Assembly: GCA_951406725.2 (NCBI GenBank)
Contig: OX597823.1
Coordinates: forward strand, 105,896,001-105,960,000
Direction: 5' to 3'
DNA length: 64,000 bases
From: Octopus vulgaris
Lineage: Eukaryota
Shown here: in pieces, positions 25,488 to 26,855 of the stretch
Position numbering within the stretch: position 1 is the first letter of the stretch
Layout of the letters: every line of letters begins with the position of its first letter
The notes under the pieces: generated by a model
Told to the model about the DNA's origin: nothing
What the model saw: the letters and a program-made list of their open reading frames with translations, nothing else
Databases searched by the model: none
Made by a program: the position numbers and the translations under genes

Positions 25488-25581
<94 letters not shown>

Positions 25582-25703
25582 CAATTTAGGAGTGACCTTA
25601 ACAGGCCATTCGTCCACCAGAAAGAGCAGCCATAACTCACACCGCCAAGTAGTAGTAATTCAGAAATTAGGTGAAAATTTAAAAACATTTACCCTAATTC
25701 ATC

Positions 25704-25801
25704 TTTTAGACGATGCATCGTTTCTGTGTCATTAATGATTAAATTAGCCTAATTAAATTAAATTAAGCTAATCTACCATAGGTTACACTTCATCAGTAAA
25801 A
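25704..25801 (-). ncRNA. Type I hammerhead ribozyme (inverted copy, palindromic stem III)
   Basis: Minus strand: tttta-CTGATGA-agtgtaacc...gacaca-GAAACGATGCATCGTC-taaaa. The stem III region ACGATGCATCGT is a perfect palindrome. Confidence 0.85.
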
Positions 25802-26494
25802 AACCTGGGAGAGACAAATATACACGAGGCGTCTGTATCGATGCCTCCGGAATATCTGTCTTAAAATTTTCAAGACTGACGCATTCGCGCCAAACTTATC
25901 AGCAGTAAATATAAACTGCCGATTCAATCTCAGAATTATTCAGAAAATTATCAATTAGTCAATTTAGGATAGCAAAAAAATTCAATAGAAATTTATCGCT
26001 ACCAGCGGCCTAGTGGAAAAGAGAAAATAGTCAACGACTAAATATATAAATATAACAATTTAGGAGTGACCTTAACAGGCCATTCGTCCACCAGAAAGAG
26101 CAGCCATAACTCACACCGCCAAGTAGTAGTAATTCAGAAATTAGGTGAAAATTTTCACCTAATTTCTGAATTTACTACTTGGCAGTTTGAATTATGGCTG
26201 CTAATTCTGGTGGACGAATGGCTCTGTTAAGGTCACTCTAAATTGTTATATTTATATATTTAGTCGTTGACTATTTTCTCTTTTCCACTAGGCCGCTGGT
26301 AGCGATAAATTTCTATTGAATTTTTTTGCTATCCTAAATTGACTAATTGATAATTTTCTGAATAATTCTGAGATTGAATCGGCAGTTTATATTTACTGCT
26401 GATAATTTGGCGCGAATACGTCAGTCTTGAAAATTTTAAGACAGATATTCCGGAGGCATCGATACAACGCCTCGTTATATTTGTCTCTCCCAGG

Positions 26495-26594
26495 TTTTAC
26501 TGATGAAGTGTAACCTATGGTAGATTAGCTTAATTTAATTTAATTAGGCTAATTTAATCATTAATGACACAGAAACGATGCACATCGTCTAAAA
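26495..26594 (+). ncRNA. Type I hammerhead ribozyme with long domain II
   Basis: Stem I tttta(26495-99)/taaaa(26590-94). Core CTGATGA 26500-06. Domain II 26507-26571 (gtgt/acac base plus a 12-bp attagcttaatt/aattaggctaat helix). GAAA 26572-75. Stem III acgatg-ca-catcgt. Cleavage triplet GTC 26587-89. Confidence 0.85.
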
Positions 26595-26815
26595 GATGAA
26601 TTAGGGTAAATGTTTTTAAATTTTCACCTAATTTCTGAATTACTACTACTTGGCGGTGTGAGTTATGGCTGCTCTTTCTAGTGGACGAATACCTGTTAAG
26701 GTCACTCCTAAATTGTTATATTTATATATTTAGTCGTTGACTATTTTCTCTTTTCCACTAGGCCGCTGGTAGCGATAAATTTCTATTGAATGTTTTTGCT
26801 ACCCTAAATTGACTA

Positions 26816-26855
<40 letters not shown>

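Follow-up and report, generated by a model that had tools for sequence, protein, structure and literature searches.

Animal non-LTR retrozymes, as portrayed in the sections of PMC7229834 drawn on here, are non-coding, low-GC tandem repeats that carry a type I hammerhead ribozyme (HHR) in each unit and are dispersed through genomes as anything from monomers to multimers. Autonomous Penelope-like elements (PLEs) co-occur with them in the same genomes; the RNAs that they express measure 170-400 nt, and vertebrate family consensus lengths run from 51 to 972 (sections of PMC7229834 and 10.64898/2026.07.22.740005). A retrozyme cycle consisting of a circle, primed reverse transcription (RT) and tandem cDNA has been proposed in the same two sources, and transport of animal retrozymes by PLEs through circular RNA has been put forward, in parts of this literature, from co-occurrence, pLTR homology and RNA blots.

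The footprint that PLEs themselves leave combines tandems that are partial, a copy in inverted orientation with a truncated 5' end, and a tail confined to one end (PMC8557442, in part). In the Neptune clade this layout (sections of PMC8557442 and PMC3846280) is accompanied by palindromes or microhomology at the head-to-head junctions, an AT-rich or (TA)n target, and an HHR upstream of two RT starts (sections of PMC3846280 and PMC11167929). With a purified PLE protein, both strands of the target are cut and extended, and RT is initiated at two internal sites, which set the limits of the tail; insertion in vitro does not depend on HHR cleavage, and uncleaved RNA is the main substrate there (PMC11167929, in part). 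The origin of the tandem and inverted insertions is still called unresolved in the sections of the cited literature used here. PLEs of the Chlamys type, from a green alga, have non-coding dependants such as MRC1 with head-to-tail, multicopy insertions, and their non-autonomous elements generally share 3' sequence with autonomous families (PMC8557442, in part).

Here we describe a 474-nt family from Octopus vulgaris, one insertion of which lies in the stretch of DNA that was analysed (64,000 nt of contig OX597823.1, positions 105,896,001 to 105,960,000; hereafter the window). It adds to the animal non-LTR retrozymes a member whose integration footprint is unusually easy to read and can be counted: one A and one B end (defined below) per inverted insertion, a single haplotype and several seamless laps. 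The family resembles animal non-LTR retrozymes in its tandem layout, in its dispersal and in the autonomous PLEs that share its genome; unlike them, it has an A·A mismatch closing stem II of the hammerhead, and its expression and cleavage are putative. The head-to-head layout with fixed A and B ends finds no mention for animal retrozymes in the sections of PMC7229834 and 10.64898/2026.07.22.740005 used here. With Neptune-clade PLEs the octopus family shares all of the traits listed above for that clade, the two RT starts being predicted; it differs from them in having no ORF, a tail of about 97 nt rather than the usual 30-40, and up to about 7 laps per arm, and its unit has no homology to the local Neptune-type 3' UTRs examined. 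Like MRC1, it is a candidate non-coding PLE dependant that inserts as head-to-tail multicopies, and the hammerhead in every octopus unit sets it apart.

Architecture of the Window Locus

The insertion consists of two arms of the unit on opposite strands, set in (TA)n (Table 1). A sequence-only reading of the window had described a non-coding 474-bp unit in about 1.2 minus-strand and about 1.4 plus-strand copies joined without a spacer at 26151/52, and its coordinates and architecture are right: the arms abut at that point and can be aligned along the entire left arm, and neither strand of the unit holds an ORF of more than 43 aa. The local hairpins that it named all form in the predicted fold of the unit, which scores z -5.4 (sense) and -3.5 (antisense) against dinucleotide shuffles.

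Table 1. Features of the octopus insertion and its target, in window coordinates
Feature	Position	Strand	Remarks
Left (TA)n/(TACA)n target microsatellite	25459..25580	.	
Left arm, 1.21 laps of the 474-nt unit, 573 nt	25579..26151	-	3' end at predicted priming site A
Full 474-nt monomer used as reference, u1=26151	25678..26151	-	34% GC
Type I hammerhead motif, left arm	25702..25803	-	C3 25796; A10.1 25789 / A11.1 25725 mismatch
Head-to-head junction, self-complementary hexamer AAATTT in loop of unit hairpin	26149..26154	.	
Right arm, 1.40 laps, 666 nt	26152..26817	+	3' end at predicted priming site B, 26817
Type I hammerhead motif, right arm	26494..26596	+	C3 26500; A10.1 26507 / A11.1 26571
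Segment inside right arm	26721..26817	+	
Right (TA)n target microsatellite	26816..26884	.	

The outer boundary of the left arm is ambiguous across 25576-25580 (TA microhomology), and the overlapping laps of this arm are identical to each other. The unit period is 474 nt in the left arm and 469 nt in the first lap of the right arm. The right arm as a whole carries 20 differences from the family common state, of which 10 are substitutions and 10 are indels; one of the indels places an extra CA in stem III of the hammerhead. This amounts to 2.98 differences per 100 nt against a median of 0.24, and because it is the highest rate among 67 arms, part of these private differences may be assembly or consensus error within the palindrome.

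That excess, and arm starts that are perfectly equal in just 1 of 28 head-to-head loci, namely this one, would also suit a fold-back artefact of sequencing or assembly on a simple tandem copy. Such an origin is very improbable: the flanks are not mirrored, the right arm outreaches the left by 93 nt, and palindromes have been described at PLE head-to-head junctions (PMC3846280, in part). Nor are the outer ends mirror images, one being an A end and the other a B end; a fold-back read cannot create such a pair, so it is excluded as the source of the window ends, and the inversion stands as first read. The exact centre and some right-arm letters of the window are doubtful.

In the surroundings of the insertion (window 26885-27590 (-), 24500-25270 (+), and 25300-25460 (+)), the insertion is bordered by what we take, from translations, to be the 3' remnant of a LINE-like RT and by a SINE-like repeat whose end is the TA tract; further left there is presumably a decayed mariner-like transposase, again labelled from its translation. 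A Pfam search of the LINE-like piece beside the insertion gave no supporting match. Rfam microRNA matches in the window were rejected, being merely the palindrome, and a tRNA gene match (66.7 bits) is located at window 29638-29709 (-).

Copies and Relatives in the Genome

A genome search with the unit returned 222 matches, drawn from 39 of 1184 candidates scored, and these 39 loci were mapped; being the best matches, they are skewed to young, long copies. An exact pattern for the hammerhead 5' half of the 474-nt family found 215 genome copies, and one for the 3' half of the superfamily found 703 matches in units of about 470 nt, with 0 matches for the reversed control of each. All 39 mapped loci, on many contigs, are pure unit arrays without LTR, PBS or PPT architecture; 28 are head-to-head and 11 are single-armed. 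Full units differ by 0.22% within loci and by 1.8% between loci, which indicates that the family is young. The sequence records listed with the unit were contigs, with no RNA among them; in four of 24 runs compared, all of contigs and two of these presumed to derive from RNA, no piece among the matches listed crossed the window junction.

The features found (short, non-coding, low-GC tandems with a type I HHR in each unit, in dispersed copies) are those of non-LTR retrozymes, and at the level of sequence the family fits the definition of an animal non-LTR retrozyme. It lacks one consensus pair of the canonical hammerhead, and it behaves like a non-autonomous PLE; the RT and GIY-YIG ORF of an autonomous PLE is absent from the unit. 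Sister families, 70-90% identical, came to light by way of a divergent copy nearby and with the help of a degenerate pattern. Long arrays occur in 10 of 28 loci of the A·A family against 0 of 26 in the canonical-HHR family (p 0.0008), in a tally made by hand from 100 places among the matches listed, with exact matching that under-counts second copies in the older family. Literature on octopus retrozymes, hammerhead ribozymes and Penelope yielded no description of the family; Repbase and Dfam lay outside this scope, and the family may already be catalogued.

The Hammerhead Motif

Both window arms contain the hammerhead core, three stems, of which stem III is palindromic, and a GUC site; cleavage is predicted after C at 25709 (-) in the left arm and after C26589 in the right arm, where the CA insertion in stem III is private. 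A complete type I HHR with GUC had been claimed for each arm, which is correct for these parts and incorrect at positions 10.1 and 11.1: these are A·A and unpaired in both arms, in place of the pair (usually G-C) that closes stem II. The mismatch is found in every covering segment of the 474-nt family (143 at 10.1 and 152 at 11.1), and among 207 motifs stem II closure is A·A in 154 (the 474-nt family) and G-C in 44 (sister families). Across 223 segments from 39 loci, core positions are almost invariant (143-152 segments per position), and stem III shows a two-sided change that splits the segments 67 to 85.

In 16 sequences, chosen by us as subfamily representatives, mutually related and themselves the source of the structure, 95.2% of 207 cells are paired, compared with 30-43% in slid controls; since the sequences are related and the structure was derived from them, shuffle counts for stem pairing are not probabilities. 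Both-sided changes affect 8 of the 13 stem pairs in this set, and all three stems are represented, so that as a sequence motif the hammerhead is supported by covariation in three stems. Stem II covaries even next to the A·A mismatch (L193, L212, and L220), and the fold therefore looks maintained; within A·A lineages, compensatory change goes on in both stem II and stem III.

The predicted HHR fold lies 2.0 kcal/mol (left arm) and 5.9 kcal/mol (right arm) above the local minimum in the folding model, and the Rfam models, suggested earlier as a check on the hammerhead, gave no hammerhead match to the window at the gathering score or at E<=10. Self-cleavage by the A·A hammerhead is plausible by analogy and may be weak. 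In an axolotl retrozyme, weak cleavage persists despite a U·U mismatch at the foot of stem II of the HHR (PMC7229834, in part), and G10.1-C11.1 is termed highly conserved among PLE hammerheads (PMC4209133, in part); a literature search for the 10.1/11.1 mismatch found no paper.

Insertion Ends and Junctions

The 3' ends of the arms sit at either of two fixed sites, A at unit position ~100 and B at ~198, separated by about 97 nt, and 65 of 67 outer 3' ends lie within (TA)n. The multiple genomic copies with (TA)n flanks expected from the window are thus present in the mapped loci; the circular permutation of ends expected with them is rejected for the 3' ends, given the two fixed sites, and variation is confined to the 5' junctions. 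Every head-to-head locus with both ends classifiable (25 of 25, from the 28 head-to-head loci) combines one A with one B end. In 80 further loci (28 reached via a B-containing query and 52 from a position-ordered pattern list), the ends are A+B in 27, B+B in 1, A+A in none, B with another end in 6, single A in 27, single B in 15 and other in 4. Combined, A+B accounts for 52 of 53 classifiable head-to-head insertions, which supports the Penelope-type mobilisation first suggested. Arms ending at A and at B do not differ in length (p 0.92).

The sole B+B locus (L085:1089-1691), with a more diverged left arm (85%), may be two insertions. At L206 a B-ended minus arm (1759-2214) and an A-ended plus arm (3713-4211), 1.5 kb apart and of different subfamilies, represent either two insertions or one split insertion.

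The 5' junctions are variable and frequently have an overlap of a few bases. The window junction at AAATTT was found once in the genome, and the spacerless centre is incidental to the window copy and not a family trait; the palindrome that drew attention to the locus is real, and a chance feature of this copy. Junctions or 5' ends at the same hairpin as the window centre also occur at L053:4320-4336 (an imperfect fold-back) and L061:4361, and they are not enriched overall. Starts at the cleavage site, as from a linear cleaved monomer, were considered and rejected: they number 2 of 67 against 2.4 expected, and 2 of 76 arms against 1.5 expected in the sister family, starts near u1 in both tallies partly reflecting the position at which the reference was cut.

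Link to Penelope-Like Elements

The inverted 5'-truncated copy, the tail at one end only and the (TA)n target are the marks of PLE-mobilised elements, and mobilisation of the 474-nt element by a PLE is very likely. The genome contains young intact elements with an RT plus a GIY-YIG domain at the C terminus. Two young families, classed as Neptune-type by a Cys motif before the GIY-YIG domain (following PMC8557442, in part), have many open frames of 781 and 775 aa (e.g., L119-L124 and L263), and both have apparently been active recently. The Neptune-type PLEs of this genome insert in (TA)n, with one short end and one end longer by 30-33 nt, and all five clear head-to-head copies (L111, L124, L130, L136, and L240) combine a short with a long end.

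No autonomous PLE sharing the unit sequence was found in 90 fetched GIY-YIG or PLE stretches, some overlapping, that were drawn from 148 listed of 6136 GIY-YIG candidates and from one protein search. Beyond one 70-nt piece that stands apart, at L101, and a match of 24 nt, these loci and the unit have no sequence in common, and a search with the 70-nt piece gave matches dominated by microsatellite. PLE ORF pieces near unit copies were rejected as partners, being separate insertions of which none is joined to the unit (L038 and L176 viewed in full; L039, L089, L139, L175, L201, L203, L215, L222, and L223 by position).

Head-to-head 5' inversions also occur through LINE twin priming. This mechanism, or a DNA rolling-circle (Helitron-like) satellite in which the hammerhead is incidental, could provide a non-PLE route, with which the lack of a sequence-homologous PLE in the 90 stretches is compatible. 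We consider any such route improbable: there is no poly(A), nor a single 3' end of LINE type, the sequences of the two arms overlap in full, the hammerhead stems covary, and the two fixed ends mirror the short and tailed ends of the local Neptune-type PLEs at the same target.

Template and Proposed Mechanism

Our analysis somewhat favours reading the window as one insertion of a dispersed non-coding hammerhead tandem (a non-LTR retrozyme), integrated by a PLE (probably Neptune-type) RT-endonuclease that copied a circular 474-nt RNA. The retrozyme is likely a ribozyme-bearing parasite of Penelope-like retrotransposons.

Evidence on the template comes from haplotypes. Wherever the two arms of a locus share lineage columns, they carry the same state throughout, in 28 of 28 loci (four of which share as few as 2-7 columns), against 10.9% for cross-locus pairs, and locus-private substitutions are present on both arms in 9 of the 28. 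Among 918 locus-by-column cells, 5 are mixed and 166 are fixed for the minor allele; the 39 loci hold 21 haplotypes, and terminal pieces carry the locus haplotype at L046, L047, L048, L050, L052, L061, and L062. Arms reach up to ~7 laps, 46 of 67 cross at least two cleavage sites without scars, and the 152 segments that span the cleavage site have no indel there. Rolling-circle copying of a circular monomer is favoured because both arms and nearly all tandem units share one haplotype; such copying gives repeated fixation of new variants in every lap. A circular monomer is accordingly the better-supported template when set beside a linear multimer, and a circular template is probable given PLE mobilisation. 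The circular RNA of about 474 nt that had been proposed is a candidate template, favoured by this homogeneity and by seamless passage of the cleavage site; a search of the literature on rolling-circle copying by PLEs found no paper beyond those cited here.

Some loci show alternating or partial variants (L059, 77G; L037, 59A and 139T; L045; L048; L040), and in the window 183T is present in both full laps and missing from the terminal piece. A pure monomer circle would not give these patterns, which could come from circular dimers, from linear multimers, from unequal exchange at a later time or from conversion between the arms. Two-site priming by a PLE on a linear, uncleaved multimeric transcript, with read-through of the weak A·A hammerhead, is possible and would be in keeping with the alternation at L037, L045, and L059, with A·A closure throughout the family, and with long arrays being restricted to the A·A family, as read-through would also predict. 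Uniform long arrays would then go back to sources that were themselves uniform, to template jumps of the RT or to unequal exchange at a later stage; PLE insertion in vitro can dispense with HHR cleavage (PMC11167929, in part), and part of the preprint 10.64898/2026.07.22.740005 proposes local tandem amplification after insertion. We rate a linear template as less than probable. For every unit of both arms to become fixed for one of 21 haplotypes, arrays would have to shrink to a monomer and expand again, repeatedly; inspection of the 39 loci by eye revealed no mother-daughter pair with phased unit-specific variants, and compensatory changes still accrue in stem II and stem III of A·A lineages. 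Arrays are short in the older family and hence do not just lengthen with age.

In the circular-template reading, tandem arrays would be transcribed, the hammerhead would cut the multimers (likely as a dimer via the palindromic stem III), and the monomers would be ligated to circles. The ends, taken with PLE biochemistry, suggest that the PLE protein would cut both (TA)n strands and prime at internal points of the RNA, using site A for one strand and, for the other, site B, which lies about 97 nt downstream; because internal priming needs no RNA 3' end, a circle can serve as template. Each cDNA would travel around the template over a length that varies and can reach about 7 laps, and the two cDNA 3' ends would anneal through inverted microhomology. 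In the window, both cDNAs would have halted at the same hairpin and met on AAATTT, so that a spacerless palindrome would result.

A fuller version of this scheme is put forward tentatively. In it, the insertions would record rolling-circle RT of a ribozyme-made circle by a dimeric PLE protein, a single RNA serving for the priming of the two target strands, each at its own one of two internal sites, and the attenuated A·A hammerhead would be kept, stabilising the circle and giving longer arrays.

The footprint links retrozymes with two-site priming by PLEs and, probably, with a circular template. The short defined RNA, the two predicted priming sites and the young intact PLE ORFs in the same genome make the questions of retrozyme transport and PLE insertion directly testable in vitro, and the A·A and G-C sister families provide a natural comparison of ribozyme strength against array length.

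Variant cores occur among relatives. In sister subfamilies at L178, L201, L208, L229, L232, L237, and L195 the core has the U4C variant (CCGAUGA) and stem II is closed by G-C or G-U. Hammerhead-like motifs with a palindromic stem III are also present in autonomous Neptune-type 3' UTRs (L119:4555-4600, L038:4825-4860, and L038:7025-7060), where the core reads U3...A8, not C3...G8; U3-A8 would be a tolerated swap in the hammerhead core.
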